Assembly (NCBI GenBank): GCA_039033515.1
Contig: JBCCCM010000012.1
Location: forward strand, 2,710 to 66,709
From: Pseudomonadota bacterium
GTDB taxonomy: Bacteria; Pseudomonadota; Alphaproteobacteria; Sphingomonadales; Sphingomonadaceae
DNA length: 64,000 nt
Direction: 5' to 3'
Below are positions 12,688 to 55,442 of this stretch, piece by piece. Below the pieces are notes generated by a model. It saw only the letters and a program-made list of their open reading frames with translations. It was not told the DNA's origin and made no database searches. Numbering within the stretch: position 1 is the first letter of the stretch; every line of letters begins with the position of its first letter. A program made the translations under genes and the position numbers.

Positions 12688-12703
12688 AAGTGCGCTATGC
12701 AAG

Positions 12704-12766
12704 CGTATATGCTTCACCTTCAACGACGGAGAAGCGCACGGTGTCGAAATCGTCGACTACCATTGA
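12704..12766 (+). pseudogene. higB: C-terminal remnant of HigB (RelE/ParE-fold) toxin
   Basis: Frame reads RICFTFNDGEAHGVEIVDYH-stop, a typical HigB C-terminus; in-frame stop at 12683-12685 and no start codon. Confidence 0.8.
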
Positions 12767-13061
12767 TACATCGGACTGGTTGCACATTCCGCATGCGGGC
12801 GAATTGCTTGTATCGGAATTTATGGAGCCGCTGAGACTGGACGTATCCGCCTTGGCGCAGGCCATAGCGGTCGAACCTGCACGGCTGCAAAATATGATCG
12901 ACGGGACAAAGCGGATTGATGGCGAACTCGACCTTCGCCTCGCGCGCTATTTCCGCATGTCCGAAGGGTTCTTCATGGGCCTTCAGATCGACTGCGAGCT
13001 GCGCAGAGCAAAGCGCGAATTGAACGGCGAACTTGACCGGATAACCCCGCGCGCGGCTTGA
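12741..13061 (+). CDS. higA: HigA family antitoxin (XRE HTH)
   Basis: GTG start overlapping the higB tail (MSKSSTTID), PHAGELL..EFMEP, DLRLARYF.MSEGFFMGLQ. Confidence 0.88.
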   Translation: MSKSSTTIDTSDWLHIPHAGELLVSEFMEPLRLDVSALAQAIAVEPARLQNMIDGTKRIDGELDLRLARYFRMSEGFFMGLQIDCELRRAKRELNGELDRITPRAA

Positions 13062-13094
13062 CCCTGAGGTCGATTTCCTGCCAATCGGCAGCCC

Positions 13095-39758: not shown

Positions 39759-41357
39759 TCAGGGCCGAAAGTCCGCCCAGCTTAGACCAAAGCGCGCCAG
39801 ATATTTGCGCAAACGGTCCGCATCGTTGGTGGAGCTGCGGGCCTTGCGCGATTGGGCGAACAGTGTCCGCCCCGCTTCGGACAAAGTGCGCGAGGCGCGG
39901 CAGATTTCGGCGACGTAGTCCAACTGGACCAGATCAAACGGATCGATCGCGTCCAATTGCTCGCGCGTCATCAGCTCCGCCAATTCGGCCCCATGCCGCG
40001 ATGCGGCGGTCGGCTCGCCATGCCACAAGGCCTCAAGCCGCGCGATCTCATGGCTGACCGCTTCGGCGTCGATCCGGCCCGTGGGGCTGAGCGTCGCCAT
40101 GCGTGTCACGCTGGCGGCGAGATCGCGGAAATTGCCCGCCCACGCCGCATCGGGCCCTTGCGCAAACGTAAGATAGGCCCGGCGCGCTTCGGCGTTGAAG
40201 GTGACGCGCTCGCCCTCGGCTTCGGCAAACCGTTCAAGTTCGTATTCGAGGTTTGGCGCGATATCTTCGCGCCGTTCGGCAAGACCCGGCAGTTCGAAGG
40301 TCCAAAGGTTAAGGCGCGCAAACAGGTCTTCGCGAAAGTTCCCTTGCGCAACCTCGGACATGAGATTGCGATTGGTGCCCGCGATCAGCTGAAATTGCGA
40401 GGTAGCCTCTTTGTCCGCGCCGACGGGCAAGAAGCGGCCTTCCTCAATGGCGCGCAGGATCATCGCCTGTTCGTCGAGGCCCAGTTCCCCGATCTCGTCA
40501 AGGAACAGCACACCGGTGTCCGCGCTCTTGAGCAGCCCTGCGCGATCCGCTGCCGCGCCGGTGAACGCGCCCTTTTTGTGGCCAAACAGCGCGGACATCG
40601 CGCTGTCACCTGTCAGCGTTGCGCAGTTCACCTCAACGAACGGTCCGGCGACCTGGTGGCGCAGTTTCTTAAGCTCGTAGATCTTGCGCGCCAACTGGCT
40701 TTTGCCCGCCCCCGTCGGCCCCATCAGCAAGATCGCCGCGCGGCTGCGCATCGCGACCTGCTCGATCTCTTCGATCAGGCGATTAAAGGCCGCGTTGCGC
40801 GTTTCGATCCCGCTTTTGAGGAAACTGGCGCTTTGCGCGCTCGTCTCGGCGAAGCGGCTGGCGATGGAATCGTAACGCGACAGGTCCAGATCAATCGCAC
40901 CCCAACTGCCCACGGGTTGCGACATGCCACGCTTTGGCTGGGTCTGAAGCAGTTTGCCCGGAAGAAAGCGCGCTTCGGTCAACAAGAACAGGCAAATCTG
41001 CACAACATGCGTGCCGGTCGTGATGTGGATCAGGTAATCGTTGGTGTCCGGATCGAACGGATAGCTCTGCGCGAAATCGAGCAGCGTGGTATAAACCTCT
41101 TCAAAATCCCACGGATCCTTGAACTCGATCAGGCGCTCTTCAACGTCGGTTTCCGGCGACACGTCGGCGATATCGCTGGTGACGCGGGTGGCGAGCTTCT
41201 GGTGGCGCTCGGAATGCAGCAGCACAAAGCGATCCACGCGCAGATCTTCGTGCATGCAAAGACCGACGCTGGGCCGCCACTTGTTCCAGCGTTCGGGGCC
41301 AAACTTGGCGGCGTCGAGCGTGGTGCCGAGAAATCCGATGACCGTGAGGGGCTTCAT
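39759..41357 (-). CDS. rtcR: Sigma54-dependent RNA-repair activator RtcR (CARF + AAA+)
   Basis: VIGFLGTTLD...RWNKWRPSV, DPWDFEEVY, HITTGTH; GPTGAGKS, GAFTGA, LFLDEIGE. Confidence 0.97.
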   Translation of the reverse strand: MKPLTVIGFLGTTLDAAKFGPERWNKWRPSVGLCMHEDLRVDRFVLLHSERHQKLATRVTSDIADVSPETDVEERLIEFKDPWDFEEVYTTLLDFAQSYPFDPDTNDYLIHITTGTHVVQICLFLLTEARFLPGKLLQTQPKRGMSQPVGSWGAIDLDLSRYDSIASRFAETSAQSASFLKSGIETRNAAFNRLIEEIEQVAMRSRAAILLMGPTGAGKSQLARKIYELKKLRHQVAGPFVEVNCATLTGDSAMSALFGHKKGAFTGAAADRAGLLKSADTGVLFLDEIGELGLDEQAMILRAIEEGRFLPVGADKEATSQFQLIAGTNRNLMSEVAQGNFREDLFARLNLWTFELPGLAERREDIAPNLEYELERFAEAEGERVTFNAEARRAYLTFAQGPDAAWAGNFRDLAASVTRMATLSPTGRIDAEAVSHEIARLEALWHGEPTAASRHGAELAELMTREQLDAIDPFDLVQLDYVAEICRASRTLSEAGRTLFAQSRKARSSTNDADRLRKYLARFGLSWADFRP

Positions 41358-41501
41358 ATCATATTTATACGATGGGATAATTTCTTATACAATAGGAGCT
41401 TTACCTCAGGCTTCGCGCTGGAAGCGGTCCAAGCAGAGAGATTCGCTTTTCCCATTATATTTCATATGTTTGGAAGATAATCAGTGTCGAAGAATCAATT
41501 T

Positions 41502-41517
41502 TGGCACGCCCCCTGCT
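41502..41517 (+). promoter_or_regulatory. Sigma54 (-24/-12) promoter of rtcBA
   Basis: TGGCACG-ccccc-TGCT with exact GG-N10-GC; inverted ATGGGA(T/A)AA sites at 41372-41380 and 41447-41455 are candidate activator sites. Confidence 0.9.
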
Positions 41518-41528
41518 GTATTGTGAGC

Positions 41529-41617
41529 GTCGGGCATGTCGAACGCCCGGCATAGCGGCGGAAACAGGGGTGGCCGGAATGGGCCGGCCACCCCCAGAGC
41601 CTCCAAGAGCCCGCCGC
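41529..41617 (+). ncRNA. Structured RNA in the rtcB 5' leader (candidate)
   Basis: Perfect 11-bp stem 41567-41577/41584-41594 inside a 7-bp stem 41555-41561/41611-41617, preceded by hairpin 41529-41551. Confidence 0.45.
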
Positions 41618-41635
41618 AGCACAGGATTAGAGACG

Positions 41636-42859
41636 ATGGAACAGACCTACGAAACCACCCATGTCGAAGACGGAGCGCCGATCAAATCGTGGACGCGCGG
41701 TGTGCCCGTGGATGCCAAGGCGAAAGAGCAGATGGCGCTCGCCGCCAAGCTGCCCTTCATCTTCAAGCATGTGGCCGCGATGCCCGATGTTCACGTCGGC
41801 ATCGGCGCGACCGTGGGTTCGGTTATCCCGACCAAAGGCGCGGTGATCCCGGCGGCGGTGGGCGTGGATATTGGCTGCGGCATGATGGCCGCGCGCACCT
41901 CGCTCATGGCGAGCGATCTTCCCGATAACCTCGCCGGTATCCGCTCCGCTATCGAAGCGGCGGTGCCGCATGGTCGGACCAATGGTCGCGGTCGCCGGGA
42001 CAAAGGCGCGTGGGGCGATCCGCCCGCATCGGTGATTGACGCCTGGGCTTCGCTCAAGGTTCGGTTTGACGCGCTGTGCGAGAAATACCCGCGGCTTCGC
42101 AACACCAACAACGTGATGCATCTCGGCACGCTGGGGACGGGCAACCACTTTGTGGAAGTCTGCCTCGACACCGAGCAGCGCGTGTGGGTGATGCTGCATT
42201 CCGGTTCGCGCGGTGTGGGGAACGCCATCGGGCGGTTCTTCATCGAACTTGCGAAGAAGGACATGCGCCAGTGGCACATCAACCTGCCCGACGAAGACCT
42301 TGCCTATTTCCCGGAAGGGACCGAGCACTTTGACGATTATCTCGAGGCGGTCGGCTGGGCGCAGGACTTCGCCGCGCTGAACCGGCGGGTGATGATGACA
42401 CACGCGCTTGACGCGCTGCGGTCACAAATCGCCAAGCCGTTCGAGGCTGAATGCGAAGCGGTGAACTGCCATCACAACTATGTGACGCGCGAGAACCACT
42501 TCGGCGAAAACGTGCTCGTGACCCGCAAGGGCGCGGTGCGGGCGGCGAAGGGCACGCTGGGCATTATCCCGGGCTCGATGGGAGCAAAAAGCTTCATCGT
42601 GCGCGGGCTGGGCAACGCGGACAGCTTCGAAAGCTGCTCGCACGGCGCGGGCCGGGTGATGAGCCGGACCCAGGCGAAAAAGCTGGTGTCGCTCGACGAG
42701 CACATCGCCGACACCGCTGGGGTCGAATGCCGCAAGGACGAAGGCGTGATCGATGAAACGCCCAAGGCCTATAAGCCGATCGAAAAGGTCATGGCCGCGC
42801 AGTCGGACCTTGTTGAGATCGTGCACACGTTGAAGCAGGTGGTGTGTGTGAAGGGGTGA
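41636..42859 (+). CDS. rtcB: RNA-splicing/repair ligase RtcB
   Basis: MPDVHVG, VGVDIGCG, GTLGTGNHF, HSGSRG, HHNY, HGAGR. Confidence 0.98.
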   Translation: MEQTYETTHVEDGAPIKSWTRGVPVDAKAKEQMALAAKLPFIFKHVAAMPDVHVGIGATVGSVIPTKGAVIPAAVGVDIGCGMMAARTSLMASDLPDNLAGIRSAIEAAVPHGRTNGRGRRDKGAWGDPPASVIDAWASLKVRFDALCEKYPRLRNTNNVMHLGTLGTGNHFVEVCLDTEQRVWVMLHSGSRGVGNAIGRFFIELAKKDMRQWHINLPDEDLAYFPEGTEHFDDYLEAVGWAQDFAALNRRVMMTHALDALRSQIAKPFEAECEAVNCHHNYVTRENHFGENVLVTRKGAVRAAKGTLGIIPGSMGAKSFIVRGLGNADSFESCSHGAGRVMSRTQAKKLVSLDEHIADTAGVECRKDEGVIDETPKAYKPIEKVMAAQSDLVEIVHTLKQVVCVKG

Positions 42860-42899
42860 TACCCTTTCGCCCACGCCCCCTGCCCTTTAGGAAAACACG

Positions 42900-43919
42900 A
42901 TGATTACGATCGATGGCTCTAAGGGTGAAGGCGGGGGGCAGGTGCTGCGGTACGCGGCGGGCCTTTCGCTTATCACCGGGGAGCCTTTCACCATTGAGAA
43001 CATTCGCGGCGGACGCAAAAAGCCGGGCATGATGCGCCAGCATGTGACCGCGCTTGAGGCGGCCTGTGCGATTGGCGGGGCTGAGGCGAGCGGGCTCGCC
43101 GTAGGGTCGGAGACGTTGACCTTTCGGCCCGGCCGCGTGACACCGGGCGAATACCACTTTGCTGTGGGCACGGCGGGCAGCACGGGGATGGTCCTTCAGG
43201 CCATCCTCGCGCCGCTGATGCTTGCCGACGGGCCGAGCCGGGTTGTGATCGAAGGGGGCACTCATGCGAGTTTCGCGCCGCCCTTCGAGTTTACGGCAAA
43301 GACGCTTTTGCCGCTGCTCAGCCAGATGGGGCCCAAGGTCTCCGCGACGCTGGAACGGCACGGCTTCTTTCCGCGCGGTGGTGGCCGGATCGTGGTTGAA
43401 TTTGACCCGGCGGGACTGTCGCCCGTGGATCTCGTGGATCGCGGAGAGCTTGTTTCGACCTCGGCGGAAGCCCTAGTCGCGGGCATCGCTTTCGATGTCG
43501 CGGGCCGCGAGCTCAAATCGGCGCGCAAAGTGCTCAACGCATGGCCCGAAGACGCGTTCGCGCCGGTTCAGCTGCCCGCCGATCACGGTCCGGGCAACGC
43601 TCTGCTGCTCACCGCGCGGTTTGAGCGGGTGACCGAGGTGGTGTCGGGCATTGGTCAAATGGGCCTGTCCGCGGAACGGATCGGCAAGACGGCGGCCAAG
43701 CGGATGGCGGGTTACCTCGCGAGCGGCGCGTTTGCGGGGCCGTATTTGCAGGATCAGCTCTTGCTGCCGTTTGCGCTGGCGCGCGGCGGGGCCTTTACGA
43801 CGGTCAAGATCAGCGAGCATTCGCGCACCGCGATGGACCTGATTGAACGCTTCACGGGCACTCGCTTTGCGGTGTCGGGGGAGCCGGACAAAGGCTGGCG
43901 GATTGAGGTGGCGGGGTAG
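42900..43919 (+). CDS. rtcA: RNA 3'-terminal phosphate cyclase
   Basis: IDGSKGEGGGQVLR, GTAGS, GGTH, RHGFFPRGGG, QDQL, EH.RT. Confidence 0.96.
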   Translation: MITIDGSKGEGGGQVLRYAAGLSLITGEPFTIENIRGGRKKPGMMRQHVTALEAACAIGGAEASGLAVGSETLTFRPGRVTPGEYHFAVGTAGSTGMVLQAILAPLMLADGPSRVVIEGGTHASFAPPFEFTAKTLLPLLSQMGPKVSATLERHGFFPRGGGRIVVEFDPAGLSPVDLVDRGELVSTSAEALVAGIAFDVAGRELKSARKVLNAWPEDAFAPVQLPADHGPGNALLLTARFERVTEVVSGIGQMGLSAERIGKTAAKRMAGYLASGAFAGPYLQDQLLLPFALARGGAFTTVKISEHSRTAMDLIERFTGTRFAVSGEPDKGWRIEVAG

Positions 43920-43931
43920 CGTTTGGCGGCG

Positions 43932-44285
43932 TTACCGCGCCATCTTGCGCACGTCGATGTCGGCGCCTGCAAACGCTTTTTCGATCACGCCGATCGCCAG
44001 ATCGATCCGGGCCGCGCCGCACATAAAGATGTCGAGCGCGGCAAAGCCGGTTTCAGGCCACGTGTGGATCGAGATGTGGCTTTCCGCCAGCATCAGCACG
44101 CCCGTGACGCCCATCGCAGGTCCGAAATGGTGAAAGTGCCCTTGCAACACGGTGGCTCCAGCGGCCTTCGCGGCGCGGCGCAGCACGGCTTCGACATGGT
44201 CGGGCTCGTCCAATCGCCTGGCCCCGCGCACATCGATCAGCGCGTGGGTTCCAACCTGAGTGATAGCTTGATCAGTCATCGCCAT
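43932..44285 (-). CDS. speD: S-adenosylmethionine decarboxylase proenzyme (class 1B)
   Basis: GTHALID, GVTGVLMLAESHISIHTWPE (ES cleavage site), DIFMCG; GGAGG RBS. Confidence 0.95.
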   Translation of the reverse strand: MAMTDQAITQVGTHALIDVRGARRLDEPDHVEAVLRRAAKAAGATVLQGHFHHFGPAMGVTGVLMLAESHISIHTWPETGFAALDIFMCGAARIDLAIGVIEKAFAGADIDVRKMAR

Positions 44286-45870
44286 ACGCCCTCCATTCCT
44301 TTGTGAAGAGCTGGACGAGCGCCTGATTTTCAAGCCGGTTTATATCGGGCGCGGCGGCGCGCATATCAGCTGGGAATTCGCGCATGCGCGCCTCTTCGCT
44401 CGGCGTGAAATAGCGCAATCCGTCGGGCAAGTTCGCGATCTTGGGCAGGGCCCCGCGCGCCGCCAGAGTAAAGCCCCAATCGCCAAAGCTGGGCACATAA
44501 GTGTGGTAGGGATGCGTCGCAAAACCCGCCGCATTGAGCGTTGCGCCGATCATCGCAAAGCTGCGGGTCGAGACATAAGGCGCGGTGCTCTGCACGCTCA
44601 TCACCCCCGCAGGGGCGAGAAGCGCGCCGAGATTGCGGTAGAATTCCAGACTGTACAGCCGACCAATCGAATAATTGGTGGGATCCGGCAGATCGACGAG
44701 GATCACGTCGAACTGGCGATCCGTGTCCCTGGCCCAGGTGAAAGCATCAGCGTTGATCACTTCGACGCGTGGGTCCGCAAACGCGTCCGCGTTGAGCCGG
44801 GTGAGGACGGGTGCGGCGCGAAACAGCTCGGTGATGGCCGGGTCCAGATCGACAAGCGTGGCCGAGGCGACCGCGTCCTCTTTCAACACTTCGCGCAGCG
44901 CCAGCCCGTCCCCTCCGCCGAGGATCAGCACGCGCGAAGGAGCTGCGACGCGGCCCATGGCGGGCCAGACAAGGCTTTCGTGATAGCGGTATTCATCGCG
45001 GCTGGAGAATTGCAGATTGCCGTCGAGAAACAGGCGAATGTCGCCCTTTTTCTGCGTCAGCACGATGCGTTGATATTGGCTCGATTTCGCGTAGATCAGG
45101 TTGTCGTTGTAGAGACCCGCCTCGGACAGACGCTGCAAGGCTTCCGACGCGACGGCGCCCACGACCAGTAAGACTGCGACGAGGATCGCCGACACTCGCT
45201 CCAGCGCGAGCGAGCGATCACGGCGCAAGCGGAAGACGAGCAACAGCGCGACAAGAATATTGACGAAGCCGATCACAAACCCGGCGCGGATCAGCCCCAC
45301 GAAGGGCACCAGAACCAGCGGGAACAACAGCGATGCCGCTAGCGCGCCGATATAATCGTAGGTCAGCACGTTGGAGACCAGATCGCCAAAACTGAACTCG
45401 TCCTTCAAAATGCGGATGAGCAGCGGGATTTCGAGGCCGACCAGAAACCCGATCAACAGGACAAGGCCGTAAAGGATCGGGCGGAAATCATCGACCAACG
45501 GGAACAGCAGAAACAACGCCGCCGCCGAGGTTCCTCCGACCGCCGCGATGATAATCTCGATCCGGATAAACCATGCGAGCAGCCGCCCCTCGATATAGCG
45601 CGAAAACCAGCTGCCGATCCCCATCGCGAACAGATAGGTGCCGATCACGGTTGAGAACTGGGTGACGCTGTCGCCCAGCAGATAGGTCGCAATCGTGCCC
45701 GCCAGCAATTCGTAGATCAGCCCGCAAGTCGCAACCACGAAGACCGAGACCAGCAGGATCAGCGAGAGACCATCGGTCTTCGCTCCCACCGTCTCAGGCG
45801 ATGCCCCTGCCGGTTGAGCACCAGCTGGCTGAGCTCCCGCGCGAAGTGCAGGAGCCCCGTTTTCAGCCAT
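44272..45870 (-). CDS. Membrane-bound polyamine aminopropyltransferase (spermidine synthase-like with N-terminal TM domain)
   Basis: TM region (CGLIYEL, GLEIPLL, DYIGAL) then QFSSRDEYRYHE, LGGGDG, VDLDP, NADAF, VDLPDP. Confidence 0.93.
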   Translation of the reverse strand: MAENGAPALRAGAQPAGAQPAGASPETVGAKTDGLSLILLVSVFVVATCGLIYELLAGTIATYLLGDSVTQFSTVIGTYLFAMGIGSWFSRYIEGRLLAWFIRIEIIIAAVGGTSAAALFLLFPLVDDFRPILYGLVLLIGFLVGLEIPLLIRILKDEFSFGDLVSNVLTYDYIGALAASLLFPLVLVPFVGLIRAGFVIGFVNILVALLLVFRLRRDRSLALERVSAILVAVLLVVGAVASEALQRLSEAGLYNDNLIYAKSSQYQRIVLTQKKGDIRLFLDGNLQFSSRDEYRYHESLVWPAMGRVAAPSRVLILGGGDGLALREVLKEDAVASATLVDLDPAITELFRAAPVLTRLNADAFADPRVEVINADAFTWARDTDRQFDVILVDLPDPTNYSIGRLYSLEFYRNLGALLAPAGVMSVQSTAPYVSTRSFAMIGATLNAAGFATHPYHTYVPSFGDWGFTLAARGALPKIANLPDGLRYFTPSEEARMREFPADMRAAAPDINRLENQALVQLFTKEWRAYGDD

Positions 45871-46114
45871 GGATGGCAGCGGCGATAATGATCGCAATCG
45901 AAAGCGCCATGGCGCCCGCTAGAACGGCCACACCGGTGTTGCGGTTATCGACAATCTCCACGCGCAGTTTAGTCGGCGTGATGATGTCGACGATCACGAA
46001 GGTGACGAGGAAAACGAAAATTCCCAGAAAGGAATAGGCGAGGCTCGCCAGAAAAGTGTCGAGAGTGAGCATAGCGCCCCCTGATGATGTTGCGAGAAGT
46101 GTCAGATTAGTCAT
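45863..46114 (-). CDS. DUF350-like small membrane protein
   Basis: Two TM helices, DIITP...EIVDNRNTGVAVL.GAMALSIAIIIAAAIHG; start is 46114 (ATGA overlap) or 46072. Confidence 0.85.
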   Translation of the reverse strand: MTNLTLLATSSGGAMLTLDTFLASLAYSFLGIFVFLVTFVIVDIITPTKLRVEIVDNRNTGVAVLAGAMALSIAIIIAAAIHG

Positions 46115-46251
46115 TTGTGCGTAGGCCCCCCACCGCGTGAATAAATATTGCGCGCCTGAACGCCGTCGCCAAACGGCGAATAGCCATACCAGCCTGCGGT
46201 CGCGTGCAGGCCGACGCACAGCGCGCACCAGACCATGAATGTCTTCTTCAT
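46111..46251 (-). CDS. 46-aa membrane/secreted microprotein (not in ORF track)
   Basis: MKKTFMVWCALCVGLHATAGWYGYSPFGDGVQARNIYSRGGGPTHK; GGAG RBS; fills the operon gap and overlaps the next ATG. Confidence 0.75.
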   Translation of the reverse strand: MKKTFMVWCALCVGLHATAGWYGYSPFGDGVQARNIYSRGGGPTHK

Positions 46252-46266
46252 GCCTTGGCTCCTGAT

Positions 46267-47595
46267 TTAGTCGTCATCGTCATCGTCCGCTCCGTCATAG
46301 CCGCTTTGCCGGGCGGTTTCGAAACTGGCCGCGCGCATCCCGACCCAGATAACCGGCCCAAACAGCGCCAGAAACAGTAGGAAGAAATGCGAATTGAACG
46401 TCCCGTTCGAGGTGACCACGACGCTCACCGCGCGTCCCGGCTGCGCGCCTGACCCGACCCAGACCTGGTCCAGCTTGGCCGTGGCCACCGGCCCTCTTGC
46501 CTCGTCTTCGGGCAAAAGCACTTCGGCGGTCAGCTGATATGTGCCGGGAGGGACCGAGGCGATCTTGACCGTGCCGCGCCGGTCATCTTCCTTCCAATCG
46601 CGTCCATAGTAGTATTCGATCGGCTGGCTTGCGATGATCTCTTCATCGGTTGCGGTGTTGGTCAGGGTGTATTCCAGATACATCCAGTTGTTATCGCCCG
46701 GTTCCCCGCGCGCGGTGATCGTTACCGGCTTGGGACGCCCGGTCATCGTGAACGTCCCGACATCAAAACTGCGCGCCGAGGTCGCCGGGTTCGCGGTGAA
46801 GGCCATGTGCCGTTCCTCACCCCCGAACGACAGCAGGACCGAGATCAGAAGCGCGGCGGCAAAAGCGATCGATGCGATCAGCGCGCTGGTCATGACGCCG
46901 TTGCCATAGGGGTTGGGATGGTGCGGCTGGGGGTAATCGCCGGACGCGGGATATTGCCCGGTGTCCTCGATCCCAAAAGCTTTGGCGACCGCTTTGGACT
47001 CGACAAATTCCTCCAGCGTCCAGTTGTTTTCGTCCCCGGTGATCTCGCACGAGAGCACCTTGCCCCCGCCGACATAGCTGGTGGATTTGACCTTATCGCC
47101 CTTCTTGACCTGCCAGTAAAACTCGCCAATCGCGCGCTCGACTGTGCTTTCGGCCGGGTCGTAGATGCGCTTCATCCGCGCGCCTTCATATTCGAAGGTG
47201 TCCTGGCGCGGGCTGGCGAGTTGCGAGAGGATCGGCGTGCCCACGCTCCAGCCGCTCGCTTGCCAGATCAGCCAGCGATAGCCGTGATAGGGGTTGAACA
47301 GGAGGAATTCCTCCCATGTGTCCCAGCCATCGTTTTTCTCGATATTGCCGACGCAGACCCATTCGACGCCGTTGATGGTGCCCTTGGTTCCGAGTGGGAT
47401 TTGCAGCGTCTTGGCCGCCTCAACATGCGCCGCGACCAGGCGGGTGTCATCGTTGGTAAGGTCAATCTCGCTGCCGCAATATTGGCACATATGCAGCGTG
47501 GAATAGCCCGCCGCGTGCAGCTCGAACGGGCCGCCGCATGACGGGCATTCGAGCGCCTTGGTCGAGGCGACGACTGTGCCTGCGGGCGCGTTCAC
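46267..47595 (-). CDS. Zn-ribbon + DUF4178-like membrane protein
   Basis: CPSCG...CQYCG; W.EFLLFNP..GYRWL; GEFYW.V..GD; two TM helices; poly-Asp tail. Confidence 0.85.
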   Translation of the reverse strand: MNAPAGTVVASTKALECPSCGGPFELHAAGYSTLHMCQYCGSEIDLTNDDTRLVAAHVEAAKTLQIPLGTKGTINGVEWVCVGNIEKNDGWDTWEEFLLFNPYHGYRWLIWQASGWSVGTPILSQLASPRQDTFEYEGARMKRIYDPAESTVERAIGEFYWQVKKGDKVKSTSYVGGGKVLSCEITGDENNWTLEEFVESKAVAKAFGIEDTGQYPASGDYPQPHHPNPYGNGVMTSALIASIAFAAALLISVLLSFGGEERHMAFTANPATSARSFDVGTFTMTGRPKPVTITARGEPGDNNWMYLEYTLTNTATDEEIIASQPIEYYYGRDWKEDDRRGTVKIASVPPGTYQLTAEVLLPEDEARGPVATAKLDQVWVGSGAQPGRAVSVVVTSNGTFNSHFFLLFLALFGPVIWVGMRAASFETARQSGYDGADDDDDD

Positions 47596-48284
47596 CGGGC
47601 GACCTCAAAATCGGGAGCGGACCAGTGTTCGAACCGGCGCAGCCCCGCAGGCTCCAGATCTTCAAGCCGGTAGTAAGCGCCGCGCCACAGGCTGTGCCCA
47701 TCGCGATCTCGCTGATAGGTGATCACCGCGCCTTTCTTGGTGCGAAAGTCGATGCTGAACCGCCCCTGCTGCGCCGGAATGATATGCGGCAGCGATCCTT
47801 CGACCGCGACGCAGCGCACGCGTTTGATATCCGAGAGGAAATGCGGCGAACAGCCGATCCAGACGCGCTCGCCCAGCCCGCCATTGGCCTTGCGCTGCGC
47901 GGCTTCGATATTGGCGATGTCCTCGTCGGTGGGTTCGACCTCTTTCATCACCATGTATTTGCCGGTTTCCTCGGCCACCCAGAAGGCCTCGCCGCCCGGA
48001 AATTGCAGCAGCCATTCGTTCCAGAAACCGCCATCAAAAGCCCAGCGTTCGCGCCCGACGATTTCGCCCCGTTGACCATTGGGCGCGCCGCCGACGGTGA
48101 GCCGCGTTCCGATCTGGATGGGGCTGACATCGAAGGGCACTTGCCCCGCCTCGCCGACTTTGGAAAGCGCATCGCCCGCCTTGCTCAAAAGCGAGTTGCA
48201 CGATCCGCAGGTCACGACCGGCAGGCCGGGCACTCCCGTCCCGATCAACGCCCCGCAATTCGGGCAGTTTTGCTGCGCCTCCAC
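47592..48284 (-). CDS. Zn-ribbon + DUF4178-like protein
   Basis: CPNCG...CGSC; SPIQIGT, GFWNEW, WVAEETG, VEGSLP. Confidence 0.85.
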   Translation of the reverse strand: MEAQQNCPNCGALIGTGVPGLPVVTCGSCNSLLSKAGDALSKVGEAGQVPFDVSPIQIGTRLTVGGAPNGQRGEIVGRERWAFDGGFWNEWLLQFPGGEAFWVAEETGKYMVMKEVEPTDEDIANIEAAQRKANGGLGERVWIGCSPHFLSDIKRVRCVAVEGSLPHIIPAQQGRFSIDFRTKKGAVITYQRDRDGHSLWRGAYYRLEDLEPAGLRRFEHWSAPDFEVAR

Positions 48285-48308
48285 GAAGTAGCCCCCTAAG
48301 GTGGTCGC

Positions 48309-49307
48309 TTACAGTATCTTGGCGAGGAGTTGGGCCTTCTTGGCCTCGAACTCTTCTTTGCTCAGCGCGCCCGCTTCGTGCAGCGCGTGGAGCTTTTCTA
48401 TCACCTTGATCGGGTCTTCGGCGGGCGCGGCCGGAGCCGCAGCGGGGTTGGCCGCCGCCGCGCCGCCCGTAAGGCCACCCTGCATCACCTGACCCAGCGC
48501 CATCGCCGCCGCCACCCCAGCGCCAGCGCCCGCAACGCCGCCCGATGCGGCCATCGCTTCATCAAGCGAGTCCGCCGCTTTGAAGGTCGCGTAGTCTTGC
48601 AGGTTGCCGATCGCCCCCATCGAAGCGCGGTTGTCGATCGCTTCCTGCACTTTCTCAGGCAAGGAAAGGCTCTCTACATAAAGCGAAGGGATCACGATGC
48701 CCCATTGATCAGTCGCGTTGTCGGCGGCCTGTTGCAGCTCTTGGCTGAGCGCGGCCTGATCGGCGGCCATATCGAGAAACGGCGTCTTGCCCGACCCCAA
48801 AAGCGCGGCCAGGCTGGTCGCGATGATCGAGCGCATCTGCGCTTCCATATCGCTGATCCACAGCTGGTCGAGATTGGCGAAAGTCGTGTTGTAGAACTGG
48901 TCCACATTACCAAGTTTGAACGAATAGGTGCCAAAGGCGCGGATGCGCACCGCGCCAAATTCCGGGTCGCGCACGGTGATCGGCTGCGCGGTGCCCCATT
49001 TGAGCCCCGTGATCTCGCGCGTGGAGAAGAACATCACGTCCGACTTGAACGGGGACTTGAACATCTTGTCCCAGTTTTCCAGTGCGGTGATGATCGGCAG
49101 CGTGTCGGTCTCAAGCTCGTACATGCCCGGATCAAAGTGATCGGCCAGCTTGCCGTTGTTGAGGAACACCGCCTGTTGCCCCTCCCGCACCGTCAGGTTG
49201 GCGCCGTACTGGATCTCGTTATCCTCCATCGGCACGCGCCAGGCGAGCTGGCCCGGCTTTTCAACCCATTCGATGATGTCGATTAACTGTTTGGAAAAGA
49301 AACCCAT
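48309..49307 (-). CDS. SPFH/Band-7 domain protein with C-terminal SHOCT domain
   Basis: IDIIEW, LTVREGQQAVF, SPFKSDV, WGT..PI..RD.EFG.VRIRAFG; DPIKVIEKLHALHEAGALSKEEFEAKKAQLL. Confidence 0.92.
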   Translation of the reverse strand: MGFFSKQLIDIIEWVEKPGQLAWRVPMEDNEIQYGANLTVREGQQAVFLNNGKLADHFDPGMYELETDTLPIITALENWDKMFKSPFKSDVMFFSTREITGLKWGTAQPITVRDPEFGAVRIRAFGTYSFKLGNVDQFYNTTFANLDQLWISDMEAQMRSIIATSLAALLGSGKTPFLDMAADQAALSQELQQAADNATDQWGIVIPSLYVESLSLPEKVQEAIDNRASMGAIGNLQDYATFKAADSLDEAMAASGGVAGAGAGVAAAMALGQVMQGGLTGGAAAANPAAAPAAPAEDPIKVIEKLHALHEAGALSKEEFEAKKAQLLAKIL

Positions 49308-49511
49308 GGGTGATCCTCGATAAAAGTGGCTGGAGCGCGCCAGTGTGTGACCCGCATGGTAGGGGGAACATAGGCCTCGTGCCAAGGGCGCAAGCGATAC
49401 AAATACACCGGTAACGCCGCGGTCCCACAAAGCCTTGACCAAAACCGGTTAACGCAGGTGATCAGAGCGCGCTTTGCAACGGACGCTACGGAAGCGTCGC
49501 GCGGCGTTCAC

Positions 49512-49556
49512 TTTCCGCAACGTAAAGCCGAAAACAAAAGTTTCCGTAAACGTCAA
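49512..49556. promoter_or_regulatory. Tandem imperfect palindromes resembling LiuR-type operators
   Basis: tttccgcaacgtaaa (49512-49526) and tttccgtaaacgtcaa (49541-49556) upstream of the acyl-CoA dehydrogenases. Confidence 0.35.
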
Positions 49557-49637
49557 TCGCCCCTTGATCTTTGCTCTGCAAGCGGCATGACACCCGTTGT
49601 GGAAGGATACTGACGAGAGATTTGGGAGCAGTATAGC

Positions 49638-50837
49638 ATGAACCTCGACTTCACCCCCGAAGAGCAAGCGTTTCGCGAAGAAGTGCGCGCCTTCATCGAA
49701 GAGAATTACCCCAAGCACCTGAGGGATGGCGGCCAACGCGAAGATCTGCCGCCCGAAGACTTCGTCGCCTGGCATAAAGTGCTTGGCGAAAAAGGCTGGT
49801 CGGTGCCCGCATGGCCGACCGAATATGGCGGCACCGGCTGGACGCCGACGCAGCGTTACATCTGGTCGGAGGAAAACGCCCGCGTGAACGCGCTGATGCC
49901 GCTTCCCTTTGGCGTCTCGATGGTCGGCCCGGTAATCTACACCTTCGGCAACGACGAACAGAAGGCCAAGCACCTGCCCGGCATCCGCGATGGCAGCGTG
50001 TGGTGGTGTCAGGGCTATTCCGAGCCGGGCGCGGGTTCGGACCTCGCCAGCCTCAAAACCACCGCCGTGCGCGATGGCGATCATTATGTGATCAACGGGC
50101 AGAAGACCTGGACGACGCTGGCCCAGCACGCCGATTGGGGCTTCTTCCTGTGCCGCACCGATCCCGACGCGGCCAAGCCGCAAGAAGGCATCAGCTTCAT
50201 CCTGATCGACATGAAGACGCCGGGCGTCGAAGTGAAGCCGATCAAGCTTCTCGACGGCACGCATGAAGTCAACGAAACCTGGCTCACCGATGTGCGCGTT
50301 CCGGTCGAAAACCTCGTGGGTCAGGAAAACATGGGCTGGACCTACGCCAAATTCCTGCTCGCGCATGAGCGCAGCGGTATCGCCGGTGTCGCACGGTCCA
50401 AGCGCGGGGTTGAAAAGCTGCGCGATATCGCCGCTCAGGAAGAGCTCTATGGCGAGCCGCTGATCGAGGATTTCGATTTTGCGCGAAAAGTCAGCCAGCT
50501 TGAGATTGATCTGGCCGCGCTTGAAATCACCGAACTGCGCACGCTGGCCGGTGAACAGGCGGGCAAGGGTCCGGGCCCGGAAAGCTCGATCCTCAAGATC
50601 AAGGGCACCGAAATCCAGCAACGCCTGACCGAGCTCACATTGGAAGCGGTCGGCAGCTATGGCGCGCCTTATTATCTCGAAGCGGCCAACGATGAGGGTT
50701 CGAACGAGTACCAAATCGGTCCCGACTACGCTGCGCATTCGGCGGAGAACTACTTCAACATGCGCAAGACGTCGATCTATGGCGGATCGAACGAAATTCA
50801 GCGCAACATCATCACCAAGATGATCTTGGGCCTTTAA
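49638..50837 (+). CDS. Acyl-CoA dehydrogenase (PimC-like large subunit)
   Basis: WWCQGYSEPGAGSDLASL, NGQKTWTT, SIYGGSNEIQRNII. Confidence 0.92.
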   Translation: MNLDFTPEEQAFREEVRAFIEENYPKHLRDGGQREDLPPEDFVAWHKVLGEKGWSVPAWPTEYGGTGWTPTQRYIWSEENARVNALMPLPFGVSMVGPVIYTFGNDEQKAKHLPGIRDGSVWWCQGYSEPGAGSDLASLKTTAVRDGDHYVINGQKTWTTLAQHADWGFFLCRTDPDAAKPQEGISFILIDMKTPGVEVKPIKLLDGTHEVNETWLTDVRVPVENLVGQENMGWTYAKFLLAHERSGIAGVARSKRGVEKLRDIAAQEELYGEPLIEDFDFARKVSQLEIDLAALEITELRTLAGEQAGKGPGPESSILKIKGTEIQQRLTELTLEAVGSYGAPYYLEAANDEGSNEYQIGPDYAAHSAENYFNMRKTSIYGGSNEIQRNIITKMILGL

Positions 50838-50921
50838 GGTCCAACGGGATGGCTTGAGACGGGTATGGCGGTTTTATAAGACCGCCAACCCACGTTGAGC
50901 CACTGGGAGAAAGAACAAGAA

Positions 50922-52052
50922 ATGGATTTCAACTTCACCGAAGAACAGGACATGGTCCGCGATGGTCTCTCGCGCATGGTCCGCGAACAATATGACTGGG
51001 AAACCCGCCAGAAAGCCATCGCCAGCGAAGCCGGATGGAGCCCCGACGTTTGGGCGCAACTGGCGGAACTCGGCATTCTCGGCATGCCCTTCTCCGAAGA
51101 GGTCGGCGGCTTCGGCGGCGGCGCGATTGACGCGATGGTCGTTATGGAAGAATTCGGCAAAGGCCTCGTGGTCGAGCCCTTCGTCCCCACGGTCGTGTGC
51201 GCAGGCGGCTTTCTGAAGCACGCGGGCACATCGGCTCAGCAGGAAGAGCATCTGTCCGCGATCATCAGCGGTGAGCGCGTCTTTGCCTTCGCCTATGGCG
51301 AGCCCAAGGGCCGTTTCGACTATTCGGACATCGGCACGACCGCGAAGAAGGACGGTGACGGCTATGTCCTCAACGGTCACAAGGCGGTCGTGATCGGCGC
51401 GCCTTGGGCCAGCCACCTGATCGTCACCGCCCGCACCGGCGGCGCGCGCCGCGAAGCCGAGGGCGTGAGCGTCTTCATCGTCGACAAGTCAGCCGCCGGC
51501 ATCTCCACGCGCGACTACGCCACGGTCGATGGCCGCCGCGCTTCGGAAGTGTATTTCGAGAACGTCTCGGTCGCCGCTGACGCTCTGATCGGTGAAGAGG
51601 GCGGCGCCCTCCCCTTGATCGAGCTGGTCACCGACGAGGCTATCGCCGCCCTATGTGCGGAAGCGTGCGGCGCGATGAAGGTCGCCCACGCGCAAACGCT
51701 GGAATATTCCAAGCAGCGCAAGCAATTCGGCGTTCCGATCGGCAAGTTCCAGGTGCTGCAACACCGCATGGTCGACATGTACACCGCCTATGAAACGGCT
51801 GTATCGCTAACCTATCTCGCGACGCTCAAGCTGGGCGAGGAAGAGCGGTCACGCAAACGCCACGTCTCAGCCGCCAAGGTTGGCGTCGGGCAATCCGCGC
51901 GGCTTGTGGGTCAGGACGCGGTGCAGATCCACGGCGGCAACGGCGTGACCGACGAATATCAGATCGGTCACTACTTTAAGCGCCTCACCCTGTTCGACGC
52001 CGAATTCGGCAATGTCGATCACCACATGAAGCGCCACGTCTCGCTCGCCTAA
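50922..52052 (+). CDS. Acyl-CoA dehydrogenase (PimD-like small subunit)
   Basis: MDFNFTEEQ, RKQFGVPIGKFQVLQHR, QIHGGNG; paired with the upstream paralog. Confidence 0.9.
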   Translation: MDFNFTEEQDMVRDGLSRMVREQYDWETRQKAIASEAGWSPDVWAQLAELGILGMPFSEEVGGFGGGAIDAMVVMEEFGKGLVVEPFVPTVVCAGGFLKHAGTSAQQEEHLSAIISGERVFAFAYGEPKGRFDYSDIGTTAKKDGDGYVLNGHKAVVIGAPWASHLIVTARTGGARREAEGVSVFIVDKSAAGISTRDYATVDGRRASEVYFENVSVAADALIGEEGGALPLIELVTDEAIAALCAEACGAMKVAHAQTLEYSKQRKQFGVPIGKFQVLQHRMVDMYTAYETAVSLTYLATLKLGEEERSRKRHVSAAKVGVGQSARLVGQDAVQIHGGNGVTDEYQIGHYFKRLTLFDAEFGNVDHHMKRHVSLA

Positions 52053-52139: not shown

Positions 52140-55100
52140 CTAACGCGGCCAGGTCGGCACTCCGCTGCCCGGCGTGTACGGCGCGCCCTTGGTGCCCAGC
52201 TCCGCTTCGAGAGCTTCTACGCGGAGCTCGATATCGCGAAGCTGCTCGAGCGCAGTGGCAAACTCAGCCTTGGCGATTTCCAGCGCCGTCTTGTCCGAAC
52301 CCGTCACAGGCGACTGGTGCGACCAGCCCCAACCTCGGATCTGGCCAAGCCGCTGCACGATCGAGAACGGCACCGGCTCATTGCGGCTCGCTACCGAGCC
52401 GTCGCCGTACATTGCCACCCGCGCTTCATCGAGAAGCGTTTCGATGGCCTGCACATTCGCGCGCTGCGCCTCGTTGGCCTCAGGCAATGCCTCGATAGCG
52501 CGTTTGAGGTGGCTGATGCGATTTTGCAGTTCCGCGCCCGCCGCGCCCGCGCCGGTCACCGCGCGCGCGAACTCCGCCGTCTCCTGCTGGAAGGCCAGCG
52601 CGCCAGTGCGATCAGGCGCGACCTCGGGGCTGCGATCCAGCGCTTTGACGGTGAAGGTCTTCGGCGATCCCAAAGGTGTCACCACGCCATTGATCCGCTT
52701 ACCCATTTGCGCCGTGTATTGGCCGGGCACCACCAGCGGCCCGTCGCTTTGCCCGCCAAAGGGCGATGGCGGACCTTGCTGCAAGCGCACCGGATCAGGC
52801 GCGCCGTAGCGCAGGTTCCAAGCGACCCGGTGCAGACCCTTGGTCGACGGCGCGTCCATACGGCGCACGATATTGCCGCTGGCATCGGTTATGGTGAAGA
52901 CGATGGCGGGCGGATCCTCGCGATCCTCGGCGCGCAATGTCGCCCACGACGGATAGGGCGTGTCCCCGCCCTTCTTCGTGGTTTCTTGTTCAGCCTTGCG
53001 CCGCGCCTTGGCGCGGGTCTCTAACCCATCGCGCAAAGTGTAGGTGAGGACCGCGCCAAAGGGCGGGTTTTCCGCGAACCAGAAATCATCGCCGTTAAAG
53101 GCGCGCGGGCCGCCATAGGTGCCCCACAGATCCCCCTCGACGTAAAGCCACGGATCGCGCACATCGAACAAGGTCGCCTCGGCGCTGGCGACGCTGGCCG
53201 CGCTGGTGCGCAGCGGCGAATAATCGTCGAGCACATAAATGCTGCGGCCAAAGGTGCCGACCACCAAGTCGTTTTCGCGCCGCTGGATCTCCAGATCGCG
53301 AACGGCAATGGTCGGGAAGTTCGCCTTTAGCGCGTGCCAACTGCCCCCGCGATCCTGTGAGTAGAACAGGCCCAATTCGGTGCCCAGGAACAGCAGCTTT
53401 GGATCGACATGATCCTCCGCAATCGTGTGCGCCGCGCCGCGCATCGGCAGATCGCCCATGATCGGTTGCCAAGAGCGGCCCTTATCGCTGGTGCGGAAAA
53501 CATAGGGCTTGTCATCGCCGCGCTTATGGTTGTCGAACACGGCGTAGGCGACGTTGGCGTCGCTTTGCGAGGTTACGATATCCTCGACCAGCGTCATGTC
53601 GGGCACGCCCCGGATCATTTCCAACCGCCGCCAGGTCGCGCCGTTATCCTCCGTCACCGAGATCACGCCGTCATCCGTGCCGACATAGATCAGCCCTTGT
53701 TGAACCGGGCTTTCGCTGATCGAGATCGCCGCGCCAAAGATCGATGTGGAATCGTTCTTGGCCACCGCATCGACGCTCCACACGCGCCCCATCACGGGCA
53801 GCGCGTTGCGATCGATCTGACGAGTGAGATCGGGGCTGATCTTCTTCCAGGAGTTGCCGCGATCGTCGGAGGCAAACAGATATTCCGCCGCGTAGTAAAT
53901 CCGGTCGGGATTGTGCGGGCTGATGAGAACCGGCGTGTTCCAGTTCCACTTATAGGCCCGCTCACCCGGTTCGGGCTGCGGGGTCAGGAACACGCGTTCC
54001 TGCGTGCGTCGGTCATAGCGCGCGAGGCCGCCATATTGGTACTGGGTGTATACGATGTTGGGATCGCGCGGATCAATCTGCGGCTTGTACCCATCACCGC
54101 CGAGCACGATGTGCCAGTCCGAATTGGTGATCCCATGCTTGGTCGTGGTGCGCGATGGGCCGCACAGCGAGTTGTTGTCCTGCGTGCCCCCGCACACATT
54201 GTAGAACGGCAGCGCGTTGTCGGGCTGGATGCGGTAAAACTGCACAATCGGCAGGTTGCGCGTGTGGCGCCATTGCTGGCCACCATCCCAGCTTTCGTAG
54301 ATGCCGCCATCGCCGCCCATCAGCATATGCTGCGTGTTCGTCTCATCAATCCACAGCGCGTGATCATCGACGTGGCGCGCCGTGTTGCTGAGCGGGGCAA
54401 AAGTCTTGCCGCCGTCGGTGGAGCGGGTCGAAAAGGTGTCGAGCGAATAGAGCACCTCGGGATCTTTGGGATCGACGATGATCTCGTTGTAATATTGCGG
54501 GCTGGTGGTCATGTGGCCCGAACGCTTGGTCCAGCTTTGCCCGAAATCGGACGTGCGATAGACGCCCTGCTGGTCCGGCTGCCCTTCAACAATGGCGTAG
54601 ACCATGTCCGGGTCCGATGGCGCCATGGCAAGGCCGATGCGCCCCATCTCATCGCCGGGCAGCCCCGCGCCGACCTTGCTCCAGTTTTCGCCGCCATCGC
54701 TGGAGCGGTGGATGCCAGAGCCCGGCCCGCCATTGATCAGCGTCCAGACATGGCGTCGCCGCTGGTAGGAGCTCGCAACGATCTGGTCCGGGTCATCGGG
54801 ATGGACGACGAATTCGTTAATGCCGGTGTGTTCGTCGATTTCCAGCACGCGTTTCCACGTCGCGCCGCCATCCGTGGTCTTGTAGAGCCCGCGATCCCCA
54901 CCTGCGGACCACAGCGGCCCTTGGGCAGCGACGAGCACGTGATCGGCGTTTTCCGGGTTGATCCAGATCTGTCCGATATGGCCCGATTGCTTGAGCCCCA
55001 TATTGGTCCACGATTTGCCGCCATCGGTCGATTTGTAGACCCCGTCGCCATTCGCGACCGAGCGCTGGGCGTTGTTCTCGCCTGTGCCGACCCAGATCGT

Positions 55101-55442
55101 CTTGTCGTCGCTGGGCGCGATTTCGACGACGCCCACCGCATACGCGCCTTCGCGGTCGAAGATCGGGGTCCAGCTAACGCCCGCGTTTGTGGTCATCCAC
55201 ACCCCGCCCGATGCGGTCGCGACGATGTAATGGTGCGATCCGTCGCCGAAGAAGGCAAAGTCCGAAATGCGGCCCGAGACATAGGCCGGACCGATCAGCC
55301 GCAGCGGAAGGTTCGAGAGATCGCTCGGTTTTGTGTCTTGCGCCTGCGCGGCCAGCGGGCTGATCGGCACCGCAGCCCCGACGCTCACCAAAGCGGCGCC
55401 CGCCAAAAGTCCTGCGCTCGCGCGCTTTGCCCAATGTACCAT
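52140..55442 (-). CDS. Exported BNR/Asp-box (VPS10-like) beta-propeller protein, putative glycosyl hydrolase
   Basis: 1100 aa with signal peptide; repeated SxDGGxxW boxes (STDGGKSW, TTDGGATW, SSDGGENW, SWDGGQQW, SDDRGNSW). Confidence 0.9.
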   Translation of the reverse strand: MVHWAKRASAGLLAGAALVSVGAAVPISPLAAQAQDTKPSDLSNLPLRLIGPAYVSGRISDFAFFGDGSHHYIVATASGGVWMTTNAGVSWTPIFDREGAYAVGVVEIAPSDDKTIWVGTGENNAQRSVANGDGVYKSTDGGKSWTNMGLKQSGHIGQIWINPENADHVLVAAQGPLWSAGGDRGLYKTTDGGATWKRVLEIDEHTGINEFVVHPDDPDQIVASSYQRRRHVWTLINGGPGSGIHRSSDGGENWSKVGAGLPGDEMGRIGLAMAPSDPDMVYAIVEGQPDQQGVYRTSDFGQSWTKRSGHMTTSPQYYNEIIVDPKDPEVLYSLDTFSTRSTDGGKTFAPLSNTARHVDDHALWIDETNTQHMLMGGDGGIYESWDGGQQWRHTRNLPIVQFYRIQPDNALPFYNVCGGTQDNNSLCGPSRTTTKHGITNSDWHIVLGGDGYKPQIDPRDPNIVYTQYQYGGLARYDRRTQERVFLTPQPEPGERAYKWNWNTPVLISPHNPDRIYYAAEYLFASDDRGNSWKKISPDLTRQIDRNALPVMGRVWSVDAVAKNDSTSIFGAAISISESPVQQGLIYVGTDDGVISVTEDNGATWRRLEMIRGVPDMTLVEDIVTSQSDANVAYAVFDNHKRGDDKPYVFRTSDKGRSWQPIMGDLPMRGAAHTIAEDHVDPKLLFLGTELGLFYSQDRGGSWHALKANFPTIAVRDLEIQRRENDLVVGTFGRSIYVLDDYSPLRTSAASVASAEATLFDVRDPWLYVEGDLWGTYGGPRAFNGDDFWFAENPPFGAVLTYTLRDGLETRAKARRKAEQETTKKGGDTPYPSWATLRAEDREDPPAIVFTITDASGNIVRRMDAPSTKGLHRVAWNLRYGAPDPVRLQQGPPSPFGGQSDGPLVVPGQYTAQMGKRINGVVTPLGSPKTFTVKALDRSPEVAPDRTGALAFQQETAEFARAVTGAGAAGAELQNRISHLKRAIEALPEANEAQRANVQAIETLLDEARVAMYGDGSVASRNEPVPFSIVQRLGQIRGWGWSHQSPVTGSDKTALEIAKAEFATALEQLRDIELRVEALEAELGTKGAPYTPGSGVPTWPR

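Follow-up and report, generated by a model that had tools for sequence, protein, structure and literature searches.

We analysed a 64,000-nt stretch of DNA (the window; contig JBCCCM010000012.1 of assembly GCA_039033515.1, Sphingomonadaceae), which comes from a marine metagenome and whose nearest relatives are Erythrobacter and unclassified Pseudomonadota metagenome-assembled genomes, which makes a placement in Sphingomonadales reasonable. Seven minus-strand genes lie head to tail at positions 43932-49307 of the window, and they are best read as a PspA-less "Psp-like" membrane module combined with a private aminopropyl-transfer pair, namely the S-adenosylmethionine (AdoMet) decarboxylase SpeD and a membrane-fused aminopropyltransferase, here called mSpeE. 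With a probability of roughly 0.55, we propose that this operon carries out an aminopropylation directed to the cell envelope, that the reaction is coupled to a cation crossing the membrane, and that it is scaffolded by the SPFH and DUF4178 proteins. The genes, in the order in which they are read on the minus strand and with the parts discussed below, are as follows (aa, amino acids; AF2, AlphaFold 2).

48309..49307, minus strand: SPFH protein (Band_7_1) with a C-terminal SHOCT domain, 332 aa (PF13421, 2.9e-68; PF09851, 3e-08); ATG start with GAGGA upstream.
47592..48284, minus strand: g2, a soluble protein with a Zn ribbon (CxxC...CxxC) and a divergent DUF4178 domain, 230 aa; GTG start.
46267..47595, minus strand: g3, with a Zn ribbon, DUF4178, a transmembrane helix, a predicted extracytoplasmic beta-sandwich, a second transmembrane helix and an acidic tail, 442 aa (PF13785, 9.4e-16); GTG start.
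46270..46296, minus strand: acidic C-terminal tail of g3, DGADDDDDD, read from the sequence.
46111..46251, minus strand: microprotein, 46 aa, with one hydrophobic helix and a Gly/Arg-rich tail ending in ...PTHK; AGGAG 7 nt (CCAAGGC) before the ATG.
46114..46119, minus strand: C-terminal codons of the microprotein, a near-invariant His-Lys.
45863..46114, minus strand: DUF350 protein with two transmembrane helices, 83 aa (PF03994, 2.9e-11); ATG at 46114, alternative ATG at 46072.
44272..45870, minus strand: mSpeE, a domain of seven transmembrane helices fused to an aminopropyltransferase, 532 aa (NF002956, 642.6 bits; PF01564, 6.5e-33; AF2 pLDDT 86).
45151..45786, minus strand: membrane domain of mSpeE, residues 29-240, seven helices (AF2 model, hydropathy and conservation over 81 sequences).
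44275..45108, minus strand: catalytic domain of mSpeE, residues 255-532, with a C-terminal extension and helix; all aminopropyltransferase motifs.
43932..44285, minus strand: SpeD, a class-1b pyruvoyl AdoMet decarboxylase proenzyme, 117 aa (TIGR03330, PF02675).

The sequence and the list of open reading frames (ORFs) show that neighbouring genes overlap or abut. The SPFH stop and the GTG of g2 are spaced by 24 nt, the stop of g2 is overlapped by the GTG start of g3 as GTGA, and 15 nt separate the stop of g3 from the ATG of the microprotein, whose own stop overlaps the DUF350 ATG as ATGA. The end of DUF350 and the start of mSpeE share 8 nt, and mSpeE and SpeD share 14 nt. No convincing terminator was found inside the seven-gene block. 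The original prediction, made from the letters of the window, had described seven co-oriented, overlapping or abutting genes as one operon-like block, and all seven were recovered on the minus strand at the positions listed above. It had also named two Zn-ribbon DUF4178 proteins among its domain assignments, which the searches described below bear out for g3 and support for g2 as a divergent copy, and an aminopropyltransferase fused to a multi-helix membrane domain with SpeD adjoining, which agrees with the seven helices of the AF2 model, the TIGR03330 match of SpeD and the 14-nt overlap.

mSpeE scores 642.6 bits against NF002956 (PRK03612; cut-off 472), with residues 35-529 aligned to positions 18-521 of the 522-position model, and it misses the canonical SpeE model TIGR00417 (134.8 bits, below 249.55). 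Among solved structures, its catalytic domain comes closest to a triamine/agmatine aminopropyltransferase of T. thermophilus (1UIR/3ANX; 31-33% identity), both in sequence (1.2e-33) and in fold (Foldseek 4e-17); in the match list this enzyme ranked ahead of the putrescine-using spermidine synthases. The missed SpeE model, the passed NF002956 model and this nearest structure are counted in favour of envelope-directed aminopropylation. T. thermophilus SpeE and mSpeE share the GGGDG, D-x-D and D-x-x-D-P motifs; the former, however, is soluble and has no membrane domain, whereas mSpeE carries seven further helices and, at its C-terminus, a conserved extension. Across the 81 sequences, which come from many phyla, the invariant residues of the catalytic domain are Q267, D292-E293-x-x-Y296-H297-E298, GGGDG at 318-322, D341/D343, D375, D393-x-P-D396-P and N511...W526, and the catalytic and donor-binding motifs, among them the acidic residues that contact ribose and adenine, align with those of the T. 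thermophilus enzyme. Because every catalytic motif is invariant, mSpeE should be an active enzyme, as far as sequence can tell. The C-terminal extension (about residues 484-532; 44275-44420), which is absent in soluble SpeE, contains the invariant F499, P500, D502 and M503, and the conserved residues of its amphipathic helix are N511, L513, Q516, V519 and W526.

The membrane domain is conserved, too. Nine residues in its helices are invariant (Y53, E54, Y63, D67, E105, Y134, E147, D172 and Y173), an acidic and aromatic pattern that is typical of organic-cation binding sites. In 81/81 sequences every helix reaches a best 17-residue hydropathy above 1.0, and the minimum for helix 7 is 1.61. On the side made up of the N-terminus with loops 2-3, 4-5 and 6-7 there are on average 10.6 Lys and Arg residues, versus 3.4 for loops 1-2, 3-4, 5-6 and the segment after helix 7. 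By the positive-inside rule, this bias predicts that the N-terminus of mSpeE is cytoplasmic and that its catalytic domain lies outside; such an outward catalytic domain, if the prediction holds, conflicts with the expected cytoplasmic use of decarboxylated AdoMet. A fold search with mSpeE was dominated by matches to the catalytic domain and revealed no fold family for the membrane domain.

The donor-generating enzyme is encoded next to mSpeE. SpeD scores 113.5 bits against TIGR03330, above the cut-off of 75.65, and its segment LAESHISIHTWPE...CG aligns with its counterparts from A. aeolicus and T. maritima (PDB 2III and 1VR7). The alignment shows that SpeD keeps the self-processing Glu-Ser site as well as the catalytic His and Cys.

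To place the operon among its relatives, a scan with one genome per species found a relative in at least 594 species, and 80 loci were kept; counts of gene presence refer to the 43 loci with enough flanking DNA, and gene order was read by tblastn with the proteins of the window. The order SPFH, g2, g3, small ORF, DUF350 and mSpeE is the same in more than 10 phyla, with loci from Sphingomonadales, Burkholderiales, Verrucomicrobiota, Acidobacteriota and Bacteroidota, and further loci from Leptospiraceae, Gemmatimonadota, Nitrospirota, Melainabacteria and Acidimicrobiia. Among the 43 loci, g3 is present in 42, g2 in 40, DUF350 in 38, SpeD in 37 and SPFH in 31. A gene order conserved across phyla shows that the arrangement is far beyond chance. 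A neighbourhood survey had been suggested along with the original prediction, and the gene order indeed recurs in the 80 loci, which come from more than 10 phyla.

The survey also revealed a partner that the window lacks. A flavin adenine dinucleotide (FAD) amine oxidase (PF01593, about 540 aa) lies directly downstream of mSpeE in 40/43 loci, and in 69/80 loci it occupies the position equivalent to 11508-13142 of locus L004, with its start near or overlapping the end of mSpeE. Judged by gene neighbourhood, the amine oxidase is the tightest partner of mSpeE among the relatives. No homolog of it was found by tblastn anywhere in the 64-kb window, and speD abuts mSpeE in the place of the oxidase only in the window and in four other loci (L001, L002, L009 and L015). 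From this distribution, the lack of the oxidase is a lineage-specific loss in the lineage of the window. The statement in the original prediction that the operon has no amine oxidase is therefore true of the window but not of the relatives, 40/43 of which carry one. Of 67 oxidase N-termini, 55 show a twin-arginine (RR) motif with a hydrophobic stretch behind it, and in 18 there is a lipobox-like Cys as well. With these twin-arginine signals the oxidase is predicted to be periplasmic, and in most lineages the product of mSpeE is thus predicted to be processed outside the cytoplasm. The oxidase sequence is far from all solved amine oxidases, and only its FAD-binding N-terminus matches them (best E 2.7e-05). 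In one locus from Candidatus Obscuribacteraceae (L026:4440-4930), a long run of Ser/Asp/Glu/Ala-rich repeats (...SSNEASDDA...) precedes the oxidase domain in its reading frame, in the place of a plain signal peptide.

Operons of this class have been described. In the available sections of Ravi et al. 2024 (PMC11237479), the class comprises a spermidine-synthase-like enzyme fused to seven transmembrane helices, DUF350, a small "lipoprotein" and DUF4178, together with either a CesT/Tir-PspA pair or a Band-7, two-transmembrane and SHOCT protein, an AdoMet decarboxylase as well as a polyamine oxidase, and the proposed role is the monitoring of polyamines or the "aminopropylation of other substrates". 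As far as those sections go, the window corresponds to their Band-7/SHOCT variant, with which it shares the seven-helix spermidine-synthase-like enzyme, DUF350, DUF4178, Band-7/SHOCT, AdoMet decarboxylase and a small gene; it differs in lacking the polyamine oxidase and in having no PspA or CesT in the operon. The small protein is described there as a lipoprotein (the "Ctha_1186" domain), whereas the microprotein of the window has no canonical lipobox. The link to Psp-like envelope-stress neighbourhoods drawn in the original prediction agrees with the membership of this locus in the same published class. The same sections of PMC11237479 do not mention that the oxidase bears twin-arginine signals or follows directly on mSpeE, that the microprotein family ends in Lys, that the catalytic domain is predicted to face outward or that g3, microprotein and DUF350 are co-duplicated; the invariant acidic and aromatic residues of the mSpeE helices and the conserved poly-Asp tail were not found there either. 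In loci that lack SPFH, ten ORFs sampled upstream of g2 were PAP2, TraT or TetR proteins or had no Pfam family, and no PspA or CesT gene was found among them. The operon type is already published, and the locus adds a member with a lineage-specific loss of the oxidase. According to a later paper from the laboratory of Li et al. 2019 (PMC12803844, citing Li et al. 2019), experiments have shown that bacterial fusions of membrane proteins with aminopropyltransferase-like domains take no part in making spermidine or spermine. The non-putrescine acceptor of the original prediction is consistent with that report, although the idea is not new but an already published hypothesis.

The upstream genes may form a membrane scaffold. 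The SPFH protein passes both PF13421 (230.1 bits against a gathering threshold of 24) and PF09851 (33.6 against 27), has a Gly/Ala-rich hydrophobic segment between Band_7_1 and SHOCT, and weakly resembles stomatin structures in sequence. g3 scores 58.6 bits against PF13785 (DUF4178), above the gathering threshold of 25, and carries a four-Cys Zn ribbon. The g2 protein of the window scores 14 bits against the same family, under the 25-bit cut-off, but 25/26 g2 orthologs match PF13785 at E<0.01, all four Cys of the Zn ribbon are invariant in the 26 orthologs, and when the profiles of the two families, g2 and g3, are compared by hhalign, the Zn ribbon and DUF4178 match with 99.2% probability. On these alignments g2 is a homologous but divergent DUF4178 copy. 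The AF2 model of g3 (pLDDT 88) shows strands at 71-198, a helix at 231-256, strands at 261-396 and a helix at 401-431, from which the Zn ribbon and the beta-rich DUF4178 are predicted to be cytoplasmic and the second beta-sandwich extracytoplasmic. With g3 as the query, Foldseek found nothing beyond generic sandwiches of the jelly-roll, lectin or capsid-like kind, at low TM-scores, and gave no functional lead. In most members of the g3 family (45-sequence alignment) an acidic tail follows a conserved FExAR motif; this tail is predicted to be cytoplasmic, and one may speculate that it pairs with the basic tail of the microprotein or binds polyamines. The poly-Asp tail of g3 had also been put forward in the original prediction as an aminopropyl acceptor, which is ruled out on chemistry because the tail has no nucleophilic amine.

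In B. subtilis, two membrane proteins, one of them with a Zn ribbon, bring the cytosolic SPFH protein YdjI (SamI) to the membrane, and YdjI in turn recruits PspA (PMC8581546; bioRxiv 10.64898/2026.02.06.704340). The likeness to this PspA-YdjGHI (SamGHI) system is that an SPFH protein is encoded here together with Zn-ribbon proteins, one of which spans the membrane; the differences are that DUF4178 stands beside the Zn ribbons here, that no PspA is found in the operon, and that the Bacillus operon has no polyamine genes. YdjI is presumably a member of PF13421. By analogy, YdjGHI would be the best functional counterpart for the SPFH and Zn-ribbon proteins of the window.

Between g3 and DUF350 lies the microprotein. 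Reading of the ORF lists shows a 45-60-aa ORF in the gap between these two genes in 72/72 loci having such a gap, a count for which scripted tallies came out lower. In the 72 loci these ORFs start with a short basic N-terminus, which is followed by a single hydrophobic helix and by a tail rich in Gly, Ser and Arg. All of them end in Lys, which comes after His in most phyla and after Gly in the Acidobacteriota and Gemmatimonadota. The microprotein of the window is 76% identical to that of L001 and 70% to that of L002. A single-sequence search with its 46 aa gave 10 matches and a profile search was needed, which found at least 1514 sequence clusters, all nameless and without Pfam domains. Among the matches listed, 119/120 family members have the terminal Lys, usually as ...HK or ...GGK, and the single exception of the 120 has ...YYHK followed by six further residues. 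Lys+Arg number about 1.1 in the N-terminal flank of the helix, and the net charge of the tail is +3 to +4, so that the orientation is ambiguous and the Lys may lie on the side opposite to the catalytic domain of mSpeE. In Solitalea agri (L032, 6545-9964), g3, microprotein and DUF350 are duplicated in tandem as a triad upstream of one mSpeE, and both microprotein copies end in ...RSYYHK. The microprotein is missing from the five minimal loci that were checked (L037, L053, L066, L073 and L075), which keep the transferase and lack g3 and DUF350; in these the transferase comes with the oxidase and/or SpeD, save for L066, which has neither. Because the microprotein is duplicated with g3 and DUF350 and is gone from the minimal loci, it belongs to the g3/DUF350 module and is no obligate partner of the enzyme. 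The DUF350 protein itself scores 44 bits against PF03994 (threshold 26) over model positions 3-66 of 133, that is, one two-helix unit. Its true start is most likely either ATG 46114, in the ATGA overlap, or ATG 46072, and a 121-aa ORF with a GTG start (45863..46228), which overlaps the microprotein in another frame, was rejected as an artefact of ORF calling.

Taken together, the operon may work as follows. SpeD, with the class and catalytic motifs of an AdoMet decarboxylase, would make decarboxylated AdoMet in the cytoplasm, and mSpeE, with its catalytic motifs intact, would transfer the aminopropyl group. The bundle of helices lined with acidic residues and Tyr would pass an organic cation across the inner membrane, be it the donor, the acceptor or the product, so that the aminopropylated amine would end up on the outer face of this membrane or beyond it, outside the bulk spermidine pool. 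DUF4178, the microprotein, DUF350 and SPFH would form the sensing or scaffolding part, as YdjG/H do when they recruit YdjI in B. subtilis. In most relatives, the FAD amine oxidase, which bears signals for twin-arginine export, would act on the product in the periplasm, whereas the lineage of the window, having lost the oxidase, would only write the modification. A lipid head group, the Lys of the microprotein and a polyamine other than putrescine carry roughly equal and modest weight as the acceptor.

Several points weigh against envelope-directed aminopropylation as proposed. It fixes no single acceptor, and it assigns scaffolding to the DUF proteins by analogy only. The NCBIfam equivalog NF002956 names mSpeE a polyamine aminopropyltransferase. 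In canonical aminopropyltransferases the D-x-x-D pair holds the diamine; with D393-x-x-D396 intact, a free polyamine acceptor, even putrescine, would be compatible with mSpeE. We know of no bacterial extracytoplasmic enzyme that uses decarboxylated AdoMet or an AdoMet-derived donor. The 2019 work of Li and co-workers reportedly places a class-1b AdoMet decarboxylase beside a membrane-fused spermidine-synthase-like enzyme and DUF350, and is said to propose an acceptor other than putrescine; only second-hand citation would place these proteins in the very subfamily of mSpeE. Against NF037959 (fused MFS/spermidine synthase), mSpeE scores 33.9 bits, below the cut-off of 40, with a match that spans both the membrane and the catalytic parts, and compared with the fusions of Li et al. 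2019 it may be a sister subfamily. In addition, the sequence of the window turns up in only three runs, all of them DNA metagenomes.

A different arrangement of the same parts is possible, though we hold it only tentatively and well short of even odds. In that arrangement, the catalytic domain of mSpeE would be periplasmic and fed with decarboxylated AdoMet via the acid-lined seven-helix domain of the same protein, and would write an aminopropyl group onto an amine of a lipid, of peptidoglycan or of a protein lysine; the oxidase of the relatives would erase it, and DUF4178, microprotein, DUF350 and SPFH would signal this state to the cytoplasmic side of the membrane. It is partly favoured because of the Lys+Arg bias, the seven hydrophobic helices and the predicted periplasmic oxidase. 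If the acceptor were the microprotein, as one suggestion of the original prediction would have it, and the group went onto its C-terminal Lys, the product would be a membrane-anchored aminopropyl-lysine, for which deoxyhypusine and the polyamine-modified lysines of diatom silaffins are chemical analogs. The presence of the microprotein in 72/72 loci with the g3-DUF350 gap and the near-invariant terminal Lys, which follows His or Gly and ends 119/120 of the listed family members, speak for this acceptor, as does the report that the acceptor of the enzyme is not putrescine (PMC12803844). Nevertheless, it seems unlikely, because the microprotein is co-duplicated in L032 and absent from the five minimal loci, and hence goes with the DUF module, not with the enzyme, and because its topology is ambiguous (tail +3 to +4), with the Lys perhaps on the wrong side of the membrane from the catalytic domain.

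An equally low chance is given to lipid head groups, in which phosphatidylethanolamine or another amine lipid would be converted to a cationic lipid with altered surface charge, and the oxidase would be the eraser. The outcome would resemble that of MprF or EptA. MprF is a lysyl-phosphatidylglycerol synthase and flippase, in which a transporter-like membrane domain is fused to an enzyme that makes an envelope component more positively charged; its likeness to mSpeE is an analogy only, as the chemistry, the donor (aminoacyl-tRNA) and the fold all differ, and no homology is claimed. The embedding of mSpeE in the membrane through a conserved seven-helix domain, the link with membrane-stress scaffolds, the few common envelope amines of the host phyla beyond phosphatidylethanolamine and peptidoglycan, and a partner oxidase that is predicted to be periplasmic and is often a lipoprotein are all consistent with a lipid acceptor. 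However, there is no direct evidence for it, we know of no aminopropylated envelope lipid of this type, and the invariant acidic and aromatic residues of the helices suit a soluble organic cation at least equally. It is also improbable that SpeD and a membrane-tethered SpeE simply make housekeeping spermidine from putrescine, with the upstream genes unrelated or regulators. The NF002956 score of 642.6 bits under the name "polyamine aminopropyltransferase", the full conservation of catalytic and diamine-anchoring residues in mSpeE and the motifs of a bona fide AdoMet decarboxylase in SpeD would all fit such a pathway, but the tight overlaps and conserved order with DUF genes in more than 10 phyla, the missed TIGR00417 model and the report that homologous bacterial fusions do not make spermidine or spermine (PMC12803844) argue against it, and a predicted periplasmic amine oxidase in nearly all relatives would be odd for a housekeeping pathway. 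Anti-phage defence through polyamine chemistry or membrane disruption is very improbable indeed: SPFH and SHOCT-type proteins are known in some defence contexts and the methyltransferase-fold domain of mSpeE has a weak PADLOC match to "mad2", but the other six proteins match no PADLOC model, and the locus is chromosomal and vertically conserved, with housekeeping flanks and no mobile-element features seen.

The 5' region of the operon contains a weak promoter candidate.

49356..49385, minus strand: sigma-70-like promoter candidate, TTGGCA-18-TACCAT, 5' of the SPFH gene; weak, from a consensus scan with no enrichment over shuffles.

A sigma-54 promoter in the same place, an idea raised by the nearby RtcR, was rejected by eye, since a TGGCAC is seen but the -12 GC is wrongly spaced. 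No Rfam match for a riboswitch or another RNA element was found at E<=1 across 43000-50000. Directly downstream of the operon is an RNA-repair locus (39759-43919) with rtcR, encoding a sigma-54 activator, on the minus strand and rtcB-rtcA on the plus strand; rtcA is convergent with speD, with 12 nt between the two stops. The rtc genes also adjoin the operon in L002 (Erythrobacter) and L016 (Novosphingobium organovorum), and in no other loci. On the other side, two plus-strand ORFs (49638-52052) are divergent from the SPFH gene and, judging their translations by eye, acyl-CoA dehydrogenase-like; past them, a minus-strand protein of 1100 aa (52140-55442) has many W..T.DGG.SW repeats and looks BNR/sortilin-like by eye.

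A private AdoMet decarboxylase and a membrane aminopropyltransferase stand beside membrane-stress scaffolds in thousands of bacteria, among which we take M. tuberculosis to be one. Naming the acceptor would bring to light a hitherto unseen modification of the envelope or route of polyamine synthesis or use, and DUF4178, DUF350 and a large family of unannotated microproteins would gain functions. The locus described here is a naturally simplified, oxidase-free version of the published operon class.

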